In this document: positions 31,456 through 49,666 of the stretch, in pieces
Layout of the letters: each line of letters starts with the position of its first letter
Position numbering within the stretch: the stretch's first letter is position 1
Assembly: GCA_964443845.1 (NCBI GenBank)
Contig: CAYUFA010000004.1
Span: 2,706 to 62,996 of the forward strand
Length of the DNA stretch: 60,291 bases
Direction of reading: 5' to 3'
Source: an uncultured Ectothiorhodospiraceae bacterium
Lineage (GTDB): Bacteria > Pseudomonadota > Gammaproteobacteria > UBA9214
The notes under the pieces: generated by a model
The model's input: only the letters and a program-made list of their open reading frames with translations
The model's database searches: none
What the model was told of the DNA's origin: nothing
Position numbers and translations under genes: made by a program

Positions 31456-31482
31456 TAAAGTTCAGCGCCAGGCGGCCGATAG
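31456..31482 (+). promoter_or_regulatory. sigma28 (FliA) promoter
   Basis: TAAA-N15-GCCGATAG vs consensus TAAA-N15-GCCGATAA; about 45 bp upstream of a small ORF with RBS. Confidence 0.8.
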
Positions 31483-31527: not shown

Positions 31528-31728
31528 GTGGCAGAATCGAACGGACTAAAGAGATCGCAGATCGGCAATTTCCTCGGTCAACCGGTCTTTGAGACCTTTA
31601 CCTCGCGTAACATGACCTATGTATTCGACCGGGTCGCCCGCTACATCGACGGTGAATTTCCGCTCGAACAGCTCGACAAGGAAGAAGTACTGATACGTCC
31701 CGGCCTGATCTACCGCCCGGCCAAGTAA
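31528..31728 (+). CDS. Small hypothetical protein (66 aa), probable sigma28 target
   Basis: AGGAG RBS, GTG start, protein-like composition, sigma28 promoter upstream. Confidence 0.75.
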   Translation: MAESNGLKRSQIGNFLGQPVFETFTSRNMTYVFDRVARYIDGEFPLEQLDKEEVLIRPGLIYRPAK

Positions 31729-31744
31729 GCCGCCACCACCGGCA

Positions 31745-32062
31745 TCAGTCGGCAGGGATCTCCAGGCCCAGCCTGTGGGTCTCGTTGATCTGGTAGAGCA
31801 GACGGATACAGGGCAGCTCCTTTTCCGTCTGCTGCTTGACAATCCGCATCATCGGCAGGTCGTGCCGGTCAAACACGTAGCTTCCGTCCTTCATCGCGGC
31901 GCGCATGGCGCGCAGTTCCTTGAGCAGAGCGGCGATATAACCCGGCGTCTCGTCGATTTCGTCGATATCAAACCCGCGCGCCTCGATGATATCCTCGAGT
32001 TCGAAGATCGCCTGTCTGACCAGTTCGACGTATTGTTCAGCCGTTGCAGGTCGATTACCCAT
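31745..32062 (-). CDS. Hypothetical protein (105 aa)
   Basis: Directly downstream of prmB, helical protein-like composition ending INETHRLGL. Confidence 0.8.
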   Translation of the reverse strand: MGNRPATAEQYVELVRQAIFELEDIIEARGFDIDEIDETPGYIAALLKELRAMRAAMKDGSYVFDRHDLPMMRIVKQQTEKELPCIRLLYQINETHRLGLEIPAD

Positions 32063-32068
32063 CCCGAA

Positions 32069-33034
32069 TCATTCCACGTCGGATGCATGTGTCACGGTGC
32101 GCGTCTGCAGTGCCGCGGCAAACTGCGGCCCCCCGGCCAGCAACTGCTCACGCTCCAGCAGCAACACGCCCTCGCCCCCGTATTCGAAATCCAGCCACAG
32201 GAACGGCGCATCGGGAAACAGCCCGATCAACTGGTCCTGGGCGTGTCCCACTTCCACCACCAGTATGCCACGTTCCCGCAGGTGCACGGCAGCATCGGCC
32301 AGGATGCGCACCGCAACGTCCAGCCCGTCACAGCCTGCCACGAGTCCCTGCGCCGGCTCGTACCGGAACTCTGCCGCAAGACCCGCCATCTCACCCGCCG
32401 GAACGTAGGGTGGATTGGATACGATGATGTCGAACCGCTGCGTCCCGAGCGCCGCATACACGTCCGAGCGCAGCGGGGTCACGCGCCCGGCCAGATCATG
32501 CCGTTCGACATTGAGCGCGGCAACCTGCAGGGCGTCCGGCGCAATGTCGGTCAGAATGACTTCCGCATCCGGGAAATAATGCGCGCAGGCGATGCCGATG
32601 CAGCCGCTGCCGGTACACAGGTCCAGCACCCCGCGTACCGTGTCCGGGTCGATCCAGGGCTGGAACCGGTTTTCCACCAGTTCCGCCAGCGGAGAGCGGG
32701 GAATCAGGACCCGCTCATCGACGTAAAAGGGCATGCCCGCGAACCAGGCCTGGTGCGTCAGGTACGCCGCCGGCTTGCGTGTCCGGACCCGCAGTTCCAG
32801 CAGTTCCCTTGCCTGGCGCACCTGGTCGGACGTCAGCGCGCGGTCCAGCTCCCGGTCATCGATCCCGTAATCCAGGTCCAGCGCATGCAGCACCAGTGCC
32901 GCCGCCTCGTCCAGCGAGTTGTCCGTCCCGTGGGCAAAGACCAGTCCGGATCCGCCCAGCAGTTGTGCGCCACGGGCGATGAGCTCGCGGGCAGTCCCGG
33001 CGTCAGCCAGCAATGAACCGAGGTGTTCCGTCAT
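32069..33034 (-). CDS. prmB: Ribosomal protein uL3 N5-glutamine methyltransferase
   Basis: HGTDNSLDEA, VDERVLIPRSP, LDLCTGSGCI, SNPPY; near aroC. Confidence 0.96.
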   Translation of the reverse strand: MTEHLGSLLADAGTARELIARGAQLLGGSGLVFAHGTDNSLDEAAALVLHALDLDYGIDDRELDRALTSDQVRQARELLELRVRTRKPAAYLTHQAWFAGMPFYVDERVLIPRSPLAELVENRFQPWIDPDTVRGVLDLCTGSGCIGIACAHYFPDAEVILTDIAPDALQVAALNVERHDLAGRVTPLRSDVYAALGTQRFDIIVSNPPYVPAGEMAGLAAEFRYEPAQGLVAGCDGLDVAVRILADAAVHLRERGILVVEVGHAQDQLIGLFPDAPFLWLDFEYGGEGVLLLEREQLLAGGPQFAAALQTRTVTHASDVE

Positions 33035-42356: not shown

Positions 42357-42443
42357 GCCGAGGTGGTGAAACTGGTAGACGCACTGGACTCAAAATCCAG
42401 CGGGGGAAACTCCATGCGGGTTCGATTCCCGCCCTCGGCACCA
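42357..42443 (+). tRNA. tRNA-Leu(CAA)
   Basis: GCCGAGGTGGTGAAACTGGTAGAC; anticodon arm CTGGA-CTCAAAA-TCCAG; long variable arm; CCA end. Confidence 0.97.
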
Positions 42444-42453
42444 TTCCGGCCGG

Positions 42454-42957
42454 TCAGTGCGACGCCGGCACCATCAGGATCAGTAACAGGACGGCAGCCA
42501 GGGCAAACACCAGGTAGCGGATCCGGTCCGCTGCTGCCCGGGAACCGGCACGCGGGCGCGAACGTAGCGGGGCTGCCACGGGCAGCGCCCGGGCCTTGCG
42601 CCGGTCCGGCAGGACCCTGCGCTCCGCACCAGGGCACCGGCCACAGCCGGCACAGGCAACGCGGCGACGCTCGCCCCTGCGCTCGTCCGCAAGCATGCGG
42701 GCCTGGTGGTATGCGCGGCTGTCCGCCAGATTCGCAAACCGGACCATGACGGAGGGGACTATCCCGGGGACCTGTCCGGCCCGGACCCAGTCATGGCAGT
42801 CCGTACTGAGTTCGTCGTCGATCCGGATCCGCCCGAGCAGAATGTGCCGGGATACGGTCGCCCCGCTGAACGGCCCCCGCACCACCCCGTCTCGTCGCGC
42901 ATACCAGTCCCTGTCATGCAAAGTGGCTTGCCGGGATTCACCTGGTGTACGGGACAT
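42454..42957 (-). CDS. Hypothetical membrane-anchored protein (GYF_2/DUF4339-like N-terminus, ERR repeats, C-terminal TM)
   Basis: WYARRDGVVRGPFS...W pattern, DERRGERR/ERRxxxDRR, CAGCGRC, C-terminal hydrophobic helix; 11 bp after the fliA stop. Confidence 0.7.
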   Translation of the reverse strand: MSRTPGESRQATLHDRDWYARRDGVVRGPFSGATVSRHILLGRIRIDDELSTDCHDWVRAGQVPGIVPSVMVRFANLADSRAYHQARMLADERRGERRRVACAGCGRCPGAERRVLPDRRKARALPVAAPLRSRPRAGSRAAADRIRYLVFALAAVLLLILMVPASH

Positions 42958-42968
42958 AAAACTGCAGC

Positions 42969-43697
42969 TCAGTCGCTCAACCAGTCCCCCATGCGGGCAC
43001 GCAGGCGAATCAGCGCCTGTCCGTGAATCTGGCAGACCCGCGATTCACTCACACCGAGAATCTCGCCGATCTCGCGCAGATTCAGTTCCTCGTCGTAGTA
43101 CAGCGCCATCACCAGCCGTTCGCGTTCCGGCAGCCCCTTGATTTCCTCCGCCAGTCCCAGTCTGAAATCGGACTTCTGCAGCGTATCCAGCGGCTGATCG
43201 GCATGCTGGCCGGGCTCGGGAATCCCGTCCTCGCTCAGCATCCCCGGGTCTTCAAAACTGAAAATCCGGCAGCCGGTCGAGTCCTGCAGGATCTTGTGGT
43301 ATTCCTCCAGGCTCAGCTCCATTGCCGCGGCAACTTCCACGTCACGTGCATCACGTCCTTTCTCGTTCTCGATCCTGCGCACCGCTTCCGCCACTTCCCG
43401 GGCCTTGCGGTGTACAGAGCGCGGAGTCCAGTCGGTGCGGCGAATCTCGTCAAGCATGGCACCGCGGATGCGGATGCCGGCATAGGTTTCGAAACTGGCC
43501 CCCTGGTCCGGATCGAATTTCCGGGAAGCCTCAATGAGACCGATCATTCCTGCCTGAATGAGATCATCCGCCTGCACACTGGCCGGCAGGCGACTCATCA
43601 GGTGATACGCAATCCGTTTCACCAGGGGTTCGTGCAGGATGACCAGTTCGTTGCTGCAGGAAAAGTCCCGGGACGCCTTTGCAGTATTACCTTTCAT
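42969..43697 (-). CDS. fliA: RNA polymerase sigma28 FliA
   Basis: LVKRIAYHLMSRLPASVQADDLIQAG, FETYAGIRIRGAMLDEIR, DWTPRSVHRK, VSESRVCQIH. Confidence 0.96.
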   Translation of the reverse strand: MKGNTAKASRDFSCSNELVILHEPLVKRIAYHLMSRLPASVQADDLIQAGMIGLIEASRKFDPDQGASFETYAGIRIRGAMLDEIRRTDWTPRSVHRKAREVAEAVRRIENEKGRDARDVEVAAAMELSLEEYHKILQDSTGCRIFSFEDPGMLSEDGIPEPGQHADQPLDTLQKSDFRLGLAEEIKGLPERERLVMALYYDEELNLREIGEILGVSESRVCQIHGQALIRLRARMGDWLSD

Positions 43698-44581
43698 GAC
43701 CTCACCTCCTCGTTGATCTTGTCGTTCTGAAACATCCGTTCCACAAAAAACTCGAGATGGCCTCCCGCATGACCCGGGCGGGGCCATTTCATGACGCGGT
43801 CTGCCAGGTTGCGCAACGCCATTGCCGCACGGCTGCGCGGATATGCACTCAGGATGGTTTCGCCGGACCGGCCGGCCCTCAGCATGTGGTCGTCCAGCGG
43901 AATGAATCCACAACAGTTGAGAATCACATCGTGGTTGGTCGCGAAATGCTGCAACAGCCTGCCAAACACCCCGCTTGCCTCACCTGCCGAGGAAACCTGG
44001 CTGGGCAGGATACGAAAACGCGTAACACCATAGTCGTGCTGGAGGCTGGCGATCATGTGCACGACCGCAGCAACCGATTGCTCGTCCGGGCAGACCGTCA
44101 CGATGATCTCGCCTGCCGCCCTGCACAGGCTGGCAACGCACCCGCCGGTATCCCAGGCCGCATCGATCACCAGCGTATCGATACTGTCCTGCAGTGCGCT
44201 GAATACACGCACCATGCCTGCACATTCCAGAACATCGAGGGAGGCCAGCTGACGGGCACAGGAAGCAGCGGAAATCACCTGTATTCCATCCGGACCGGTC
44301 CGCATCACCTCCTGCAGGCTCCGGCTGCCGTCGAGCACGTCATGCAGGGAATCCACCGTGCCCGCTCCGAATCTGGCACTGGTGCAGGACGCACCCAGGT
44401 CGGCATCCAGCAGCAAGGGTGTGCGGCCCGACCGGCGCATGGCCTGTGCCAGATTCAGGGCAATACTGGTCGTGCCGGTGCCGGTGCTGCCACTGGTCAC
44501 GGCAATGACCTGTGCCGTGGGTCCCGGGATAACGGGATGTGCCTGCCCCCGATAATCCAGCTTGATGTCTGCTGCCCGCAT
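43694..44581 (-). CDS. fleN: FleN/FlhG-like MinD-family protein with degenerate P-loop
   Basis: VIAVTSG...ALNLA, LLDADLG, C-terminal GHLEFFVER helix as in FleN; stop overlaps fliA start; Walker A reads SGSTGTGTT. Confidence 0.8.
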   Translation of the reverse strand: MRAADIKLDYRGQAHPVIPGPTAQVIAVTSGSTGTGTTSIALNLAQAMRRSGRTPLLLDADLGASCTSARFGAGTVDSLHDVLDGSRSLQEVMRTGPDGIQVISAASCARQLASLDVLECAGMVRVFSALQDSIDTLVIDAAWDTGGCVASLCRAAGEIIVTVCPDEQSVAAVVHMIASLQHDYGVTRFRILPSQVSSAGEASGVFGRLLQHFATNHDVILNCCGFIPLDDHMLRAGRSGETILSAYPRSRAAMALRNLADRVMKWPRPGHAGGHLEFFVERMFQNDKINEEVRS

Positions 44582-44663
44582 AGTGACTTGTCTCTCCGGC
44601 GTGTCCACTCTGTTGGTCCCGGGGAATTCCGGCCTTTCTGACCCGGTGACCTGTGAGACAAAT

Positions 44664-44680
44664 AGCAACTTGTGTACCAA
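44664..44680 (-). promoter_or_regulatory. sigma54 -24/-12 promoter of fleN-fliA-orf operon
   Basis: Minus strand TTGGTACACAAGTTGCT, GG-N10-GC. Confidence 0.8.
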
Positions 44681-44718
44681 CCGAAGAAATCGCCCTGTTT
44701 TGGGGGCAAAAAAGCAAA

Positions 44719-44731
44719 TAACCAACTGAAA
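44719..44731 (-). promoter_or_regulatory. Possible IHF site between enhancer and sigma54 promoter
   Basis: TTTCAGTTGGTTA vs WATCARNNNNTTR (1 mismatch) in an AT-rich tract. Confidence 0.4.
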
Positions 44732-44778
44732 TATCAGCTAATATCAATTACCAGTATTGGTAGAACAGAAACGGGAGG

Positions 44779-44798
44779 TACGTCACATTTTTGACGTA
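44779..44798. promoter_or_regulatory. FleQ-binding box (enhancer)
   Basis: Palindrome TACGTCA-CATTTT-TGACGTA; core GTCAAAAATGTGAC resembles the Pseudomonas FleQ box GTCA-N6-TGAC; about 100 bp upstream of the sigma54 promoter. Confidence 0.7.
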
Positions 44799-44894
44799 TC
44801 GATGCGGGAACCGGGCTGGCCTGCCAGTTATCTGTCACAGAACCGGCCTGTTGAACCGGCTGGACCCGGGCAGACGAATCTGCAACGGGACTGG

Positions 44895-47153
44895 CTAGCG
44901 GGAATGGCGTCGCGTGGAAAGCATGTGGTTGAAACTGTCGTCCGGGAGGGGTTTGCTGATGTGAAATCCCTGCGCGGTGTCGCACCCCAGGCTGACCAGC
45001 AGGTTCCAGGCATTGCTGCTTTCCACCCCCTCCGCCACCACCTTGTAACCAAGGTTGTGGCCCAGGTCGATGATGGACCTGACGATGGCGATGTCCTGCT
45101 GGTCGAAGGCCACGTGGGTGATGAACGACCGGTCAATCTTGAGTGTGTGTATCGGCAATTTTTTCAGGTAGGAAAGCGAGGAATATCCGGTACCGAAATC
45201 ATCAATGGCAATAGTCACGCCCAGGTCACTCAGCCGAGACAAAACCTCCACGGCTCGGTCGGTATCCTGCATAAGGGTTGCCTCGGTGATTTCAATCTCC
45301 AGCAGGTCACCTTGCACCCCGGCCTCTTCCAGGGCAGCGCGGGTCCTGTCAGGCAGGCGTGGATTCTGGAATGATCGAGCGGACACATTCACCGAGACAC
45401 GGATTTCCAGCCCGCATTGCTGCCATTCCCTGCACTGGCGCAGGGCGGTCACCAGTACCCAGTTGGTAATCGGTGTCATCATCCCGAGCTGCTCGGCAAC
45501 CGGTATGATGCGGTTTGGCATGATGATGCCTTCGGAAGGATGCGCCCAGCGCAGCAATGCCTCGGCTCCGGTGATCCCTGACGTATGGAGATCCACCTGC
45601 GGCTGGTAATGCAGCTCGAATTCATTGTTTTCCAGAGCGGTGCGTAACTGGCCCGAATAGCGCACCTGCTGGATCGAACTGATATCGCTGACCGGGTCGA
45701 AGAACTGGCAGGGAAGTCCGTTACGCTTGGCACGATGCATGGCACTTTCTGCATTGGTCAACAGCGCATCTTCCGTCACCCCGTCCTCGGGAAAACAGGC
45801 GATCCCGAGCGTCAGGCTTACGCACAGCTGCTTGCCGCTGCAGGCAAACGGAATGTCAAAGCTGTCCAGTATCTTGGTAATAACGCGGTCGGTTGCTTCC
45901 TTTACGTTGCTGACAGGCTGCAGCAGGATTCCGAACTGATCGCCGCCCAGCCGCGCCAGCGAGTCCGATTCGCGCACCATGGACCCGAGGCGGACGGCGA
46001 TGTCCCGCAACAGGGCATCCCCGACCGCGATGCCCAGGGTGTCGTTGTACATCTTGAACTGGTTGATATCCAGCGATATCACCACCACCCTCGAGCCAGG
46101 CACCCGGCGTGATGCTGCCAGCGCATGGTTCAGGTGTTCGGTCCACAACGCCCGGTTGGGGAGCCCGGTCAGGCGGTCCGTGGTTGCCAGTTTCTGCAGC
46201 TGCAGCCGTTCGTTGATCTGGTGGTTTACATCCTCCAGCACACAGTGGACAGTGGAAATCTTTCCCAGCCGGTTTATGGAGGGGTGCATCGACAACCGGT
46301 ACCAGCGCAACTCGCCACCTGCCAGCGCCATGCGGGCCTCGGCATGGCCGGCACGCCCGCTTACCGCATCCTGCCAGCACGACAACAGCTGCTGGCGGTC
46401 TTCGGCGTGGACGGCATCGAGAACAGGAATCGGCGCCGTCAGCACGCCGTCATACAGGGTACGAAACGGGTAGTTTGCATAGCTGACCCGGTTATCCCGG
46501 ACATCGATACTCCACAGGTATTGCGGAATGCTGGACAGGATATCCTCGGATTCGGCCAGCCGCGCAGCAAGATGCGCGGACTCCTGGAGCATATTGAGGT
46601 GCATATCGCCCCAGAACGCTTCCAGGGTCACTCCGAGATCACGCAGCAAGATCCGCGTCAGGCAGTTCTCCAGCACCGACCCGTCCGCCGCAGGCAGTTC
46701 CTGACCCTGGAGTATGCGCTGCAGGTATTCCAGCAGGAGATTGTACGCACCGATAATCCAGGCGGGTTTGAATCCCTGCTGCCGGTAGGTCGCCCCCGCG
46801 TCCCGCAACGCGGATTCGTGGGTCGTACTGTCGCCTTCATTCAGGCTGACCAGCAACGACTGCAGGCAGGAGCGTGCAAACATGCCCACATCGCCGCCGT
46901 TGCGTTCAAAGTTGTAGAGGACCTCGGCGATGTCCGGATGGTCGAACAGGTAGTTGTAGAAAACCACCGCAAAACCTGCACTACACCCTGCCAGGACCTC
47001 GCGCTGTCGCTCCAGCGCCGCATGCTCCGTGGCAGTCAGGTTGAGGATGTAATTGTATTCCCGGAACAGGGGGTCTTTCTGGACGCCACCGTGCTCCTCA
47101 GCGGATGGACGCCCGCCAGCTGTCTCGCCCGACTCTCGATCGCTGTCTGTCAT
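44895..47153 (-). CDS. Globin(protoglobin-like)-PAS-GGDEF(degenerate)-EAL protein, probable c-di-GMP phosphodiesterase
   Basis: N-terminal FYNYL...GFKPAWIIGAY globin-sensor pattern; PAS (VHAEDR); DRLTGLPNR, GGDQF; intact EALLRW, DDFGTGYSS, AEGVE. Confidence 0.9.
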   Translation of the reverse strand: MTDSDRESGETAGGRPSAEEHGGVQKDPLFREYNYILNLTATEHAALERQREVLAGCSAGFAVVFYNYLFDHPDIAEVLYNFERNGGDVGMFARSCLQSLLVSLNEGDSTTHESALRDAGATYRQQGFKPAWIIGAYNLLLEYLQRILQGQELPAADGSVLENCLTRILLRDLGVTLEAFWGDMHLNMLQESAHLAARLAESEDILSSIPQYLWSIDVRDNRVSYANYPFRTLYDGVLTAPIPVLDAVHAEDRQQLLSCWQDAVSGRAGHAEARMALAGGELRWYRLSMHPSINRLGKISTVHCVLEDVNHQINERLQLQKLATTDRLTGLPNRALWTEHLNHALAASRRVPGSRVVVISLDINQFKMYNDTLGIAVGDALLRDIAVRLGSMVRESDSLARLGGDQFGILLQPVSNVKEATDRVITKILDSFDIPFACSGKQLCVSLTLGIACFPEDGVTEDALLTNAESAMHRAKRNGLPCQFFDPVSDISSIQQVRYSGQLRTALENNEFELHYQPQVDLHTSGITGAEALLRWAHPSEGIIMPNRIIPVAEQLGMMTPITNWVLVTALRQCREWQQCGLEIRVSVNVSARSFQNPRLPDRTRAALEEAGVQGDLLEIEITEATLMQDTDRAVEVLSRLSDLGVTIAIDDFGTGYSSLSYLKKLPIHTLKIDRSFITHVAFDQQDIAIVRSIIDLGHNLGYKVVAEGVESSNAWNLLVSLGCDTAQGFHISKPLPDDSFNHMLSTRRHSR

Positions 47154-47430
47154 CGTTGATACACGATTTGTTTATTATCGTGGCCACATTGCGTACAGGC
47201 CGCGTATTCATCTGCCCCCCGGCCATTCTCACCCGAAATGCCGGCGCATGACACGATCACTACAGGAACAGTCTGCTGCTGCACGGCCCCCCGTGACAGT
47301 ATTATTTCAGCATTATATTTTGTATGGAATCTAGCACAGCCCCGGCACCAAATAAAGTGTCCCGGCTGTCTGACGGCGCCAGCAACCCGGGCACCGCCCG
47401 ACGGTAAGGGCAGCGGAACCCGCCGTTGGA

Positions 47431-48855
47431 TCACTGCGGTCGCTGCATACCGTACTTGCGCAGTTTCTCGACCAGGGTGGTACGGCGCATGCCGAGCTTT
47501 CTGGCGGCATGGGCAACTACACCGCCGGAGTCCTCCAGGGCCTGCCGGATATAGTTGATTTCCAGGATGCTGAGGTGTTCCTTGAGGTTCATTCCGTTGC
47601 GTGGCAATCTCGGGCTGAGATCGCCGGGGATCGGCCGTGAACCGACCATCGCATCCACCAGACGATCGGCGTTTTCATCGTCCAGGCCGGCATGGAATTT
47701 TTCCGGCAAGTCGGTGGCTTCCACCACACCGTAGGGATGCAGTATCGCCAGGCGTTCGATCAGGTTCGCCAGTTCCCGTACGTTGCCGGGCCAGTGATAC
47801 TGGCACAGGGCATGGATCGCTCCCGGTGACAGGCGCACCGAACCCCGTTTTTCGTGCTCGATCCTGCGTACCAGCTCATTCACCAGCAGGGGAATGTCTT
47901 CCAGCCGGTCCGCGAGTGACGGCATTTCGATCGGAAATACGTTCAGGCGGTAGTACAGATCTTCGCGAAACGCTCCCTGTCGAATGGCCTCTTCCAGGTT
48001 TTTATGAGTGGCTGCAATTATGCGCACGTCCGTGGTGCGGGACTGGTTCGACCCGACCCGTTCGAAGGTACGCTCCTGCAGGACCCGCAGGATCTTGACC
48101 TGCATCTGCAGACTCATATCGCCGATCTCATCCAGAAACAGCGTGCCGCCCTCCGCCATTTCAAAACGGCCCTGCCGGTCGTTGATGGCCCCCGTGAAAG
48201 CGCCTTTCTGATGACCGAACAGTTCCGATTCGAGCAGGTCCGCGGGAATCGCGCCGCAGTTGACCGGTACGAAGGGACGCTCACGCCGGGACGAGTAATA
48301 GTGGAGATTGCGCGCCACTACTTCCTTCCCGGTACCGGACTCGCCCAGGATCAGCACATTTGCATCACTGTCGGCAACCTGCTCGATCAGTTTGCGGACT
48401 TGCTGGATGGCACGGCTGCTGCCCACGAGACTGCGGAACAGGTCGACGGGACGCTGATGACTGTTTTCGGTCCGGTGGTTTTCGATGAACACCTCGGCCT
48501 GATGCAGGGCGCTCGTCAGCTGGGCATAGTTTGGTGGAAGTTCAAGGCGCCCGAGAATACAGGAACCGGGGTCAATCCTCAGGGTTGGCTCGGCACCTTT
48601 TCTGGACAGCAGGTATACCGGCAACTGGTCATTCAGGTTGTGGATATCGCCGAGTGTGGTGGTCAGTTTCTGCTCCGAACCGCAATCACCGACCAGAACC
48701 GCCAGAAGATCGTCCTTGTCCTGCACCAGCGAGTGCCAGTCGTCCTGTCCATCCGTCTGCAGCACAGCGTAGTTGATGAACTTGAGGACGGCATTCAGTT
48801 CCTTGCTGATATCCGGACCGGTACCGACAATCAGAACCTTGGGTTCAGTATGCAT
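47431..48855 (-). CDS. fleQ: sigma54-dependent regulator FleQ/FlrA
   Basis: Non-phosphorylatable REC-like N-domain, [37 protein letters not shown]. Confidence 0.9.
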
Positions 48856-49177
48856 TCGAATATCCCGCTCGAATTCTGGTGACACGCCGGAGGATTATTA
48901 TAAAAACCGGACAAACTTGAAAGAATTATTTTCCCCCCTTCCCGTCATGGATGTTACCCAGCGAAATGCCGGATTGTCAAAAAACAGAAATGCGGAAAAT
49001 GCAGTGGCAAAGCGGCGGCTGCAAGCTGTATCTCAGGCAGATACGGGACCTGCAAACCAGCCGGATCAATGGCCTGCGTGAAGGCGCGCACCCGGCGCAT
49101 GGACCCGCTCGCGCAGCGGCGGGGGCAAGCTGCAGACCCGGCCTGTCGAGAATGTGCACAGCCACGCAAAAAACCCC

Positions 49178-49204
49178 TAAAAACCCTCCCGGGAAGGACG
49201 ATAG
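49178..49204 (+). promoter_or_regulatory. sigma28 (FliA) promoter of flgM-like gene
   Basis: TAAA-N15-GACGATAG. Confidence 0.65.
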
Positions 49205-49271
49205 AAGGAACGTAGGAAACAGCACAAGTCATCACCTGGCAACTGCTCTCACCCAGGAAGCATACCGGAAC

Positions 49272-49448
49272 ATGCAGCCAGACTATTTTGCTTACGATGC
49301 CCGCACACTGTCACGAATCAGGACACTGCGAGATCAAATCCATCGTGACGAGTACCCGCTGGACGCGATACAGGTTGCAACCAAGTTCGTTGCCCTGGAG
49401 CGGATTCTGTGCGCCGCTGCGGGGCTCCGCCACCGGACAGACGGATAG
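49272..49448 (+). CDS. flgM: Mini FlgM-like anti-sigma28 factor (58 aa)
   Basis: [26 protein letters not shown] matches the FlgM C-terminal sigma28-binding helices (ik.aI..g.Y.id...iA.k); sigma28 promoter and AGGA RBS upstream. Confidence 0.6.
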
Positions 49449-49491: not shown

Positions 49492-49567
49492 GGGGCCGTA
49501 GCTCAGCTGGGAGAGCGCTTCGTTCGCAATGAAGAGGTCGGGAGTTCGATCCTCCTCGGCTCCACCA
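49492..49567 (+). tRNA. tRNA-Ala(CGC)
   Basis: GGGGCCGTAGCTCAGCTGGGAGAGC; anticodon arm CTTCG-TTCGCAA-TGAAG; G3:U70; CCA end. Confidence 0.96.
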
Positions 49568-49589
49568 ACTCAAACGTTGTCCTGATCCT

Positions 49590-49666
49590 GCCCCGGTAGC
49601 TCAGCTGGATAGAGCGGGCGCCTCCTAAGCGCCAGGTCGGACGTTCAAATCGTCTCCGGGGCACCA
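49590..49666 (+). tRNA. tRNA-Arg(CCT)
   Basis: GCCCCGGTAGCTCAGCTGGATAGAGC; anticodon arm GGCGC-CTCCTAA-GCGCC; CCA end. Confidence 0.96.

Follow-up and report, generated by a model that had tools for sequence, protein, structure and literature searches.

Regulatory block and encoded proteins

In the present study, we analyzed a 60,291-nucleotide (nt) stretch of DNA from an uncultured Ectothiorhodospiraceae bacterium (hereafter referred to as the window), and focused on a compact block at 42454-49448 that encodes the flagellar regulators FleQ and FliA (sigma28), a FleN paralog (FleN2), and a truncated FlgM (mini-FlgM) together with a putative cyclic di-GMP (c-di-GMP) enzyme. The original prediction, which was made from this stretch alone, placed fleQ, a fleN-like gene, fliA, a mini flgM, a globin-PAS-GGDEF-EAL gene, and a membrane-protein gene between tRNA loci and saw no flagellar structural genes beside them. 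Both observations hold: family profiles and alignments identified all of the named genes within 42454-49448, at the positions given below, and no flagellar structural gene was found in the window or in the rest of its contig. Genome comparisons indicate that the block is a regulatory island common to the whole family, and we regard it as moderately probable that it forms a cascade leading from c-di-GMP through sigma54 to sigma28, with pilus chemosensing as its constant output and the flagellum as an optional regulon.

42357-42443: tRNA-Leu(CAA), one border of the block
42454-42957, minus strand: GYF_2-like gene (GYF_2, 22.3 bits, under the cut-off of 25.8)
42969-43697, minus strand: fliA, encoding sigma28 (NF005413, 306.6 bits, cut-off 201; TIGR02479, 260.5 bits, cut-off 189.6)
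43694-44581, minus strand: fleN2, encoding a FleN/FlhG paralog (best solved relative FleN 5j1j, E 1.7e-56)
44664-44679, minus strand: sigma54-type promoter TGGTACACAAGTTGCT, preceding fleN2-fliA, with one mismatch to TGGCAC-N5-TTGCW
44782-44795, minus strand: palindrome GTCAAAAATGTGAC, a candidate FleQ-box-like enhancer 116 nt upstream of the sigma54 promoter
44895-47153, minus strand: gene for a sensor-globin-fold/PAS/GGDQF/EAL protein of 752 amino acids (aa), from domain matches and a fold match
46780-46790: Tyr124 of the 44895-47153 protein, at the putative proximal-His position
47431-48885, minus strand: fleQ (PF06490, 54.6 bits, cut-off 22; Sigma54_activat, 256 bits; HTH_8, 47.9 bits)
49178-49204, plus strand: sigma28-type promoter TAAA-N15-GACGATAG, read from the sequence, 65 nt before mini-flgM
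49272-49448, plus strand: mini-flgM, 58 aa, divergent from fleQ, encoding a candidate anti-sigma28 factor with the C-terminal sigma-binding region of FlgM alone
49492-49666: tRNA-Ala/tRNA-Arg pair, the other border of the block

In the direction of transcription, the genes on the minus strand follow the order fleQ, globin-fold enzyme gene, fleN2, fliA, and GYF_2-like gene. A 94-aa open reading frame (ORF) at 47150-47434 is probably not a gene because it has no family match and sits in the spacer between fleQ and the enzyme gene.

Relatives were sampled at the species level and comprised 37 genomes of the genus and 54 genomes of the family (six genera), which were mostly metagenome bins; 19 and 26 of these, respectively, were of high quality (completeness of 90% or more, contamination of 5% or less). 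The same module, which the original prediction had proposed to look for in relatives, was syntenic in all 12 loci fetched from the genus and in all seven loci from five sister genera. Identities to the window proteins in the 12 genus loci were 81-93% for FliA, 73-81% for FleQ, 55-74% for the enzyme, 44-57% for FleN2, and 41-51% for the GYF_2-like protein. The last of these has an Arg-rich linker and a hydrophobic C-terminal segment; its gene invariably lies downstream of fliA, shares the full synteny (12/12 and 7/7 loci), and has a ratio of nonsynonymous to synonymous substitutions (dN/dS) of 0.20-0.43.

FleQ of the window carries an N-terminal FleQ domain, a sigma54 AAA+ domain with a GAFTGA loop, and a C-terminal Fis-type helix-turn-helix, and aligns end to end with Pseudomonas aeruginosa FleQ (8p53, E 1.3e-162). 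The GAFTGA, LFRS, KEVVARN, and ExxxR stretches are conserved, and NELVRR and further stretches appear to align with c-di-GMP residues of P. aeruginosa FleQ according to what we take to be the c-di-GMP motifs (LFRS, the R/N following Walker A, and ExxxR). The true start of fleQ is probably the ATG at 48855. FliA scored above both curated FliA cut-offs.

Mini-FlgM is 50-58 aa in length, with ORFs closed at 51-66 aa in relatives, and covers only positions 18/20-55 of the Pfam FlgM model, namely, its C-terminal two thirds. The protein lacks the N-terminal region used for export via the flagellar apparatus, which is familiar from Salmonella FlgM; a short FlgM is also known in Helicobacter. The window copy alone reached 13.5 bits against PF04316 (cut-off 25); this profile matched 11 of 11 mini-FlgM orthologs with a best E of 4.7e-8, and the cut-off was reached by all four copies detected among five flagellum-less genomes, one of which needed its neighbors in frame. 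Mini-FlgM was present in every locus that included the region (11/11 in the genus, 6/6 in sister genera). A predicted FliA/mini-FlgM complex scored 0.66 versus 0.05 for the best control, a mark that was also reached by 58 of 80 solved complexes and two of 110 mismatched pairs; runs agreed in at least 77% of contacts, the predicted local distance difference test (pLDDT) value of the partner was at least 71, and the modeled contacts mainly involved FliA residues 175-214.

The stop codon of fleN2 overlaps the fliA start codon as ATGA, and this arrangement indicates that fleN2 is translationally coupled to fliA. The best solved relatives of FleN2 are FleN structures (5j1j and 8p53, E 1e-55 to 1e-56). 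Its gene pairs with fliA and is not beside flhF, a position that is held by the canonical fleN on contig C1 of the same assembly. The Walker A motif of the window copy reads SGSTGTGTTS, in which both lysines are lost, as opposed to SGKGGVGKTS in the canonical C1 protein. Of 13 genus orthologs, nine have an intact deviant Walker A motif, KGGTGK[ST], and three more lack only the signature lysine. FleN2 of the window is derived from FleN and, on these residues, is probably not an ATPase. The dN/dS of fleN2 was 0.22-0.25 in the sublineage of the window, approximately two-fold higher than the 0.08-0.15 found elsewhere. A search of genome contigs for FleN2 returned only Bacteroidales ParA-like matches, and we found no report of paired FleN/FlhG paralogs in the literature.

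Regarding the putative c-di-GMP enzyme, Pfam Protoglobin was matched at 25.5 bits (cut-off 25). The AlphaFold model of the N-terminal domain (pLDDT 78.3, predicted template modeling score 0.72) showed the highest fold similarities to AfGcHK (5ohf, target-normalized TM-score 0.85), HemAT, a globin-coupled sensor of Geobacter, BpeGReg, and DosC, and is predicted to adopt the sensor-globin fold. By sequence, no solved relative of this domain was found, and the best match was an unrelated protein (E 1.2). The putative proximal (F8) His position, nine residues before the Trp of a conserved P-x-W, was assigned from what we take to be the motif, not by a residue-level structural alignment; it is occupied by Tyr in the window copy and its closest relative (L041), and by His in five and Leu in five of the 12 orthologs. 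Heme binding may differ between species or have been lost. The GGDEF motif is degenerate, reading GGDQF in 8 of 12 orthologs by pattern, and the cyclase feature is absent. Apart from one frame-broken copy, all orthologs (11/12) retain EAL, DDFGTG, KID, and EGVE. Since GGDQF is degenerate and the EAL-domain motifs are intact, the enzyme is likely to be a phosphodiesterase more than a cyclase, for which BifA-type GGDQF proteins provide a precedent. The C-terminal part matches the DibA and DosP models; it reached no NCBIfam equivalog cut-off. The fold and domains of the predicted globin-coupled c-di-GMP enzyme are as foreseen, whereas its GGDEF motif and putative proximal His are not.

The original prediction also described intact cis-wiring, namely, a FleQ box, a site for integration host factor (IHF), a sigma54 promoter before fleN-fliA, and a sigma28 promoter before flgM. 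The palindrome and both types of promoter were recovered; the candidate IHF site is a weak AT-rich resemblance at most. The sigma54-type promoter TGGTACACAAGTTGCT lies upstream of fleN2 in 12 of 12 genus loci (10 with the strict pattern and two near-variants) and 7 of 7 sister-genus loci, and the palindrome GTCAAAAATGTGAC, judged against what we take to be the FleQ-box consensus, is present in 11 of 12 genus loci. Together, they form the sole box-plus-promoter pair in the genome with no more than one promoter mismatch. A strict sigma28 pattern precedes mini-flgM in 6 of 11 genus loci and in four of the five flagellum-less genomes scanned. A sigma70-like stretch in the fleQ-enzyme spacer is partly conserved, and no promoter was assigned there. 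In one salt-marsh metatranscriptome (run X1), RNA-library contigs were identical to fleQ at 48038-48878 and to the 5' part of fleN2 at 44221-44371 and 44559-44703.

Flagellar genes in this genome and its relatives

The genome itself (3.2 Mb, 205 contigs, 100% complete by markers) encodes a complete polar flagellar gene set on contig C1, at approximately 15-60 kb. This set includes flgB-L, flgH, flgI, flgJ, flgA-flgM-flgN, pomA, motB, flhB, flhA, flhF, the canonical fleN (fleN1), fliE-R, fliC, fliD, flagellin-associated genes, and a second sigma54 activator. Profile matches on C1 covered six rod/hook-family genes, flagellin, FlgL, FlgJ, FlgI, FlgH, FliR, FliQ, FliP, FliN, FliM, FliI, FliF, PomA, a MotB-family protein, FlhF, and FlhA. 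The canonical FlgM, of approximately 91 aa, is encoded within flgA-flgM-flgN. Sigma54 sites with no or one mismatch precede flgB, flgA, fliL, and flhF on C1. Strict sigma28 patterns gave few matches in this genome and missed fliC, which carries TAAAGTTC-N11-GACGCTAT upon direct reading of its upstream region.

Neither a second FliA nor a second FleQ-domain protein scored above the cut-off in the whole genome, and the window fliA and fleQ are the sole copies; extra paralogs are limited to fleN and flgM, each with one copy in the window and one on C1. The gene content indicates that the window fleQ and fliA are the only master regulators of a flagellum that is encoded elsewhere in the genome. 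Since the C1 cluster is complete and fleQ and fliA are single, the flagellum has not been lost here and these two genes are not duplicates. Accordingly, the original prediction of a cascade kept after flagellum loss fails for this genome, and the duplication it offered as an alternative is confined to fleN and flgM. A complete flagellar set served by these regulators alone is the very finding that the original prediction had named as refuting it. The layout is unusual: fliA comes after flhA-flhF-fleN in 8 of 8 other (outgroup) families of the class, but all five flagellated genus loci have a SPOR-domain gene and an HDOD-GGDEF gene behind flhF-fleN in its place.

Several features of the C1 cluster were recorded in passing. 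Downstream of flhF-fleN1 (C1:27527-34016) lie genes for a SPOR-domain protein with Pro/Ala-rich repeats and an HDOD-GGDEF protein, followed by pomA and motB, an order common to four flagellated relatives. The second sigma54 activator (C1:49723-51243), beside fliE, has FlbD as its best NCBIfam match, well under the cut-off; no receiver domain was found in its first ~175 residues, and no neighboring sensor kinase was seen. Between this activator and fliD/fliC (C1:51816-56366) lie two large genes (695 and 809 aa) with methyltransferase-like and HAD-like domains, with a perfect sigma54 site ahead of them at C1:51719; their products may modify flagellin.

Across relatives, flagellar genes were unevenly distributed. 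FlhA was found in 17 of 37 genus genomes (10 of the 19 of high quality) and in 19 of 54 family genomes (11 of the 26 of high quality), in three of the six genera. Rod-family proteins were found in exactly the same 17 genus genomes, and matches at the level of canonical FleN1 in the genus were restricted to FlhA-positive genomes. FliA was detected in 35 of 37 genus genomes, including 19 of 19 of high quality (the two misses were 72% and 81% complete), and FleQ in 32 of 37. In four of five flagellum-less genomes, the sole FlgM-family match was the mini copy beside fleQ; the contig of the fifth ends inside the island. Thus, the proposal of a switch kept without a flagellum largely holds in the wider lineage, where the island is intact in genomes that lack FlhA, rod proteins, canonical FleN, and canonical FlgM.

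One account of these data is a simple rearrangement in which ordinary flagellar regulators were displaced and have no other role, with the apparent absence of flagellar genes in relatives being an artifact of incomplete bins. This account draws on the window fleQ and fliA being the sole copies for a complete flagellar cluster, and on many relatives being assembled in 150-560 contigs at 61-90% completeness. Moreover, the flanks of the flagellar cluster, followed in three flagellum-less and two flagellated relatives, gave no sign of a clean deletion, and were not syntenic even in the flagellated ones. However, nine high-quality genus genomes lack FlhA, all six rod-family genes, and canonical FleN, yet have kept FliA, and they include assemblies of 10-20 contigs (G023, G048, and G051). 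The island without FlhA is also found in a sister genus, in a genome assembled as one contig (G170), and the pilG promoter described in the next section is conserved regardless of flagellar genes. We consider this rearrangement to be very unlikely.

In some low-contig assemblies, FlhA was split into 2-5 pieces with stop codons (G007:C1:176113-178091, G017:C6:387335-389300, and G018:C10:186582-188547). Frameshift errors of long-read sequencing are as likely as pseudogenes to account for this because long genes other than that for FlhA are broken up in these assemblies as well.

The retained genes may alternatively be a decaying, functionless relic in flagellum-less relatives. In keeping with decay, the Walker A motif of the window FleN2 is dead, with the elevated dN/dS of its sublineage noted above, and that of the GYF gene reaches 0.43. 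On the other hand, the frames are open, and dN/dS between flagellum-less genomes was 0.04-0.05 for fliA, 0.05-0.07 for fleQ, approximately 0.10 for the enzyme gene, 0.11-0.15 for fleN2, and 0.14-0.19 for mini-flgM, at a dS of approximately 1, which is near saturation; the overall range for fliA was 0.02-0.09. The sigma54 and sigma28 promoters are also conserved. These ratios indicate that the island genes are under purifying selection in flagellum-less relatives. A relic appears to be extremely improbable, and the decay by relaxed selection that the original prediction named as grounds for its rejection was not observed.

A more serious alternative is that the island is ancestral and not primarily flagellar, and that some species acquired or reacquired by horizontal transfer a flagellar cluster that has fleN1 and a flgM of its own, though neither fleQ nor fliA, and that came under the resident sigma54/sigma28 cascade, in which case repeated loss is unneeded. 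The restriction of FlhA to 19 of 54 family genomes and three of six genera is in line with this possibility, as are the at least three changes in the flagellar state required on the tree of island genes and the location of fliA, after flhF-fleN in 8/8 outgroup families and 0/5 flagellated genus loci. In the FleN tree, FleN2 forms a monophyletic clade on a long stem, and FleN1 groups with outgroup FleN (support 0.945), not with FleN2. However, the deep nodes of this tree are weak (0.57-0.67) and are compatible with either duplication or transfer as the origin of FleN2, and the fleN-fliA pair resembles a piece of the canonical flhF-fleN-fliA cluster, which points to a flagellar origin. We regard horizontal gain as rather unlikely, albeit the strongest of the alternatives.

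Putative sigma28 targets and the pilG-chpA operon

The output of the cascade was sought in promoters. The pattern TAAA-N15-GCCGATAA was tested as a FliA promoter, which FliA would presumably recognize; in five flagellum-less genomes, TAAA-N15-GMCGATAA gave 23 matches versus one control match. These matches form orthologous groups, which precede a gene for a PilG-like response regulator in 5/5 genomes, mini-flgM in 4/5, a gene for a cyclic nucleotide monophosphate (cNMP)-binding/rhodanese protein in 4/5, a gene for a secreted 133-aa protein in 4/5, and one for a LuxR-type regulator in 3/5. A tighter, near-consensus pattern, TAAAGTTT-N11-GNCGATAA, gave a single match per genome in 27 of 37 genus and 42 of 54 family genomes, and no control match in any genome. 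In all 12 loci measured, its distance upstream of the PilG-like gene is 138-219 nt, and it precedes this gene in all 18 cases examined (the 12 loci, the five flagellum-less genomes, and this genome). The motif is kept with or without flagellar genes. In this genome, sigma28-like sites are found at the LuxR-type and cNMP genes as well.

The operon downstream encodes, in this genome, two receiver-domain (REC) proteins of 151 and 121 aa, CheW, a methyl-accepting chemotaxis protein (MCP) of 679 aa, a 2027-aa CheA with four Hpt domains as well as HATPase, CheW, and REC domains, and a further CheW; gshB is divergent beside it. This corresponds to the Pil-Chp operon architecture of P. aeruginosa, in which two response regulators, CheW, an MCP, and a giant multi-Hpt CheA with REC are encoded beside gshB. 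Homologs with 71-84% identity are named PilG in Joint Genome Institute annotation, and PilT and PilU were present in all five genomes checked. Type IV pili had been among the guesses of the original prediction for a repurposed program, and the best-conserved sigma28 promoter indeed sits before the pilG operon.

A strong sigma28-like motif was also found within 350 nt upstream of pilG in approximately 6 of 29 other gammaproteobacterial families (loci L089-L117); the six score at least 13 of 16 positions, and each score was reached by no more than one of 200 shuffles. One tally in this comparison included an unpublished genome, G075, which supports none of the claims made here. The control of pilG by FliA may not be confined to this family, and may be widespread and overlooked in Gammaproteobacteria. 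In the literature searched, including passages of PMC7170775, we found no report that sigma28 controls pilG or type IV pili in Proteobacteria.

Two further sigma28-like sites were observed. In the window, a strong sigma28-type site, TAAAGTTC-N11-GCCGATAG, at 31456-31482 lies upstream of a 66-aa ORF (31528-31728) and a 413-aa ORF (31775-33016). These ORFs match no family, and are followed by SCO1/SenC and phosphatidylserine decarboxylase genes. On contig C75 of this genome (G000, C75:185-5196, L087), pilT and pilU are followed by a gene for an approximately 919-aa protein with a C-terminal EAL domain, at the 5' end of which is a sigma28-like site, TAAAGACC-N11-GCCGATAG. This protein may be a FimX-like pilus regulator under the control of FliA.

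Proposed cascade and comparison with known systems

In the cascade that we favor, c-di-GMP-responsive FleQ would bind the upstream palindrome and, together with sigma54, activate fleN2-fliA(-gyf), and FleN2 would feed back on FleQ in species in which its ATPase site is intact. FleQ activity would be set by the neighboring globin-fold GGDQF-EAL enzyme, which would lower c-di-GMP upon sensing a gas, redox, or other ligand. FliA would transcribe mini-flgM, resulting in negative feedback, as well as the pilG-pilH-pilI-pilJ-chpA operon and the genes for the LuxR-type regulator and cNMP-binding/rhodanese protein. In flagellated members, FliA would also transcribe fliC and other late flagellar genes, with canonical FlgM serving as the export checkpoint; mini-FlgM, which lacks the N-terminal part, could keep sigma28 bound without depending on the hook-basal-body export checkpoint. 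A more specific version, which we find possible rather than probable, has at its core a flagellum-independent switch that is tuned by c-di-GMP and perhaps also by gas or redox conditions, controls Pil-Chp, and is gated by a non-exported mini-FlgM, with the flagellum being an accessory regulon that is gained or lost while the switch is left as it is.

Several points weigh against this cascade. The promoter assignments are based on motif matches and conservation, from which the regulatory steps are inferred. The genome has at least 10 sigma54 activators, and one other than FleQ could act on the fleN2 promoter. In sister genera, just two of seven loci have the strict palindrome. The metatranscriptome contigs, which are the sole RNA data, are no proof of transcription, and the parts that they leave uncovered carry no meaning. 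An anti-activator role for FleN2 is doubtful in this genome because both Walker A lysines are lost. Heme and oxygen sensing by the enzyme are unproven, with Tyr or Leu at the F8 position in 7 of 12 orthologs. Since a sigma28/FlgM complex has been solved (the Aquifex structure), the outcome of the FliA/mini-FlgM model shows likeness to that complex, which it may simply reflect, and is not proof of binding. Most relatives are metagenome bins, from which a 45-kb cluster can be missed. Furthermore, G014, a genome with two copies each of fliA and fleN2 (C14 and C263), is nested in a flagellum-less clade, in which no other genome is flagellated; it may be a bin mixing two populations.

Taken together, the original prediction is partly supported: it fails for this genome and largely holds across its relatives. 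The family provides a natural experiment, in which 54 species-level genomes share an island and approximately one third have flagellar genes, and allows the flagellar roles of FleQ, FleN, FliA, and FlgM to be separated from their other roles. It also yields a testable claim, namely, that sigma28 drives the pilG-chpA pilus chemosensory operon. If this is true, one sigma factor couples the control of swimming and twitching, which would explain why sigma28 survives the loss of the flagellum. The island further offers parts for biochemistry: an FlgM cut to its sigma-binding half, a FleN paralog without the ATPase lysines in some species, and a sensor-globin fold in which the putative heme-ligating position is His, Tyr, or Leu among orthologs.

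Among known systems, a globin-coupled c-di-GMP enzyme is reportedly linked functionally to FleQ in Azotobacter. The modeled fold of the enzyme in the present study resembles the globin-coupled sensors AfGcHK, HemAT, BpeGReg, and EcDosC, and its sequence and intact EAL resemble DosP and DibA. Unlike globin-coupled sensors, it matches no solved globin by sequence, its putative proximal His varies, and it has GGDQF instead of GGDEF.

The four-tier polar flagellar hierarchy of Pseudomonas and Vibrio employs the same proteins (FleQ/FlrA, FleN/FlhG, sigma54, FliA, and FlgM), and likewise has a sigma54 promoter before fleN-fliA, a sigma28 promoter before flgM, and a flagellar cluster with both promoter types. 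In contrast to this hierarchy, the regulators described here occupy an island of their own, which persists without flagellar genes and also contains genes for a likely phosphodiesterase and a GYF protein, along with additional copies of fleN and flgM, the latter truncated. In P. putida, according to the abstract of PMC6424431, fliA is located behind flhA-flhF-fleN, which is not the case here.

The retention of regulators in non-flagellated bacteria has been described in Legionella: according to the part of the review PMC5655016 concerned, fliA and flgM are retained in L. oakridgensis and are joined by fleQ and fleN in L. londiniensis, and L. longbeachae has kept fliA, fleN, and fleR/S. As in the present family, the structural genes are gone and sigma28, its anti-sigma factor, and FleQ/FleN are kept, which implies non-flagellar targets; that part of the source reports no clear FliA-dependent virulence targets in L. 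oakridgensis. Unlike these Legionella species, as far as they are described there, the bacteria studied here belong to a different lineage, their regulators are contiguous with a c-di-GMP enzyme, a concrete conserved target, the pilG operon, is predicted, and FlgM is retained in a mini form, alongside which flagellated members also have canonical FlgM. Passages of PMC9927559 describe the opposite pattern in Lysobacter, in which structural genes were kept and fleQ was lost.

A further precedent is WhiG, a sigma28-family factor that, together with c-di-GMP-armed RsiG, controls type IV pilus genes and c-di-GMP enzymes in flagellum-less Rubrobacter and other Actinomycetota (passages of PMC13595943). 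In both cases, a sigma28-family factor is linked to c-di-GMP and type IV pili in organisms without flagella. In these passages, RsiG binds c-di-GMP directly, whereas c-di-GMP would act upstream through FleQ and sigma54 in the system proposed here; moreover, the anti-sigma factor here belongs to the FlgM family, and the predicted target is the chemosensory pilG-chpA operon, not pilus biosynthesis genes. What is new relative to these systems is that the regulators form a compact island throughout a family, together with additional paralogs, and that a concrete target outside the flagellum is predicted for them.

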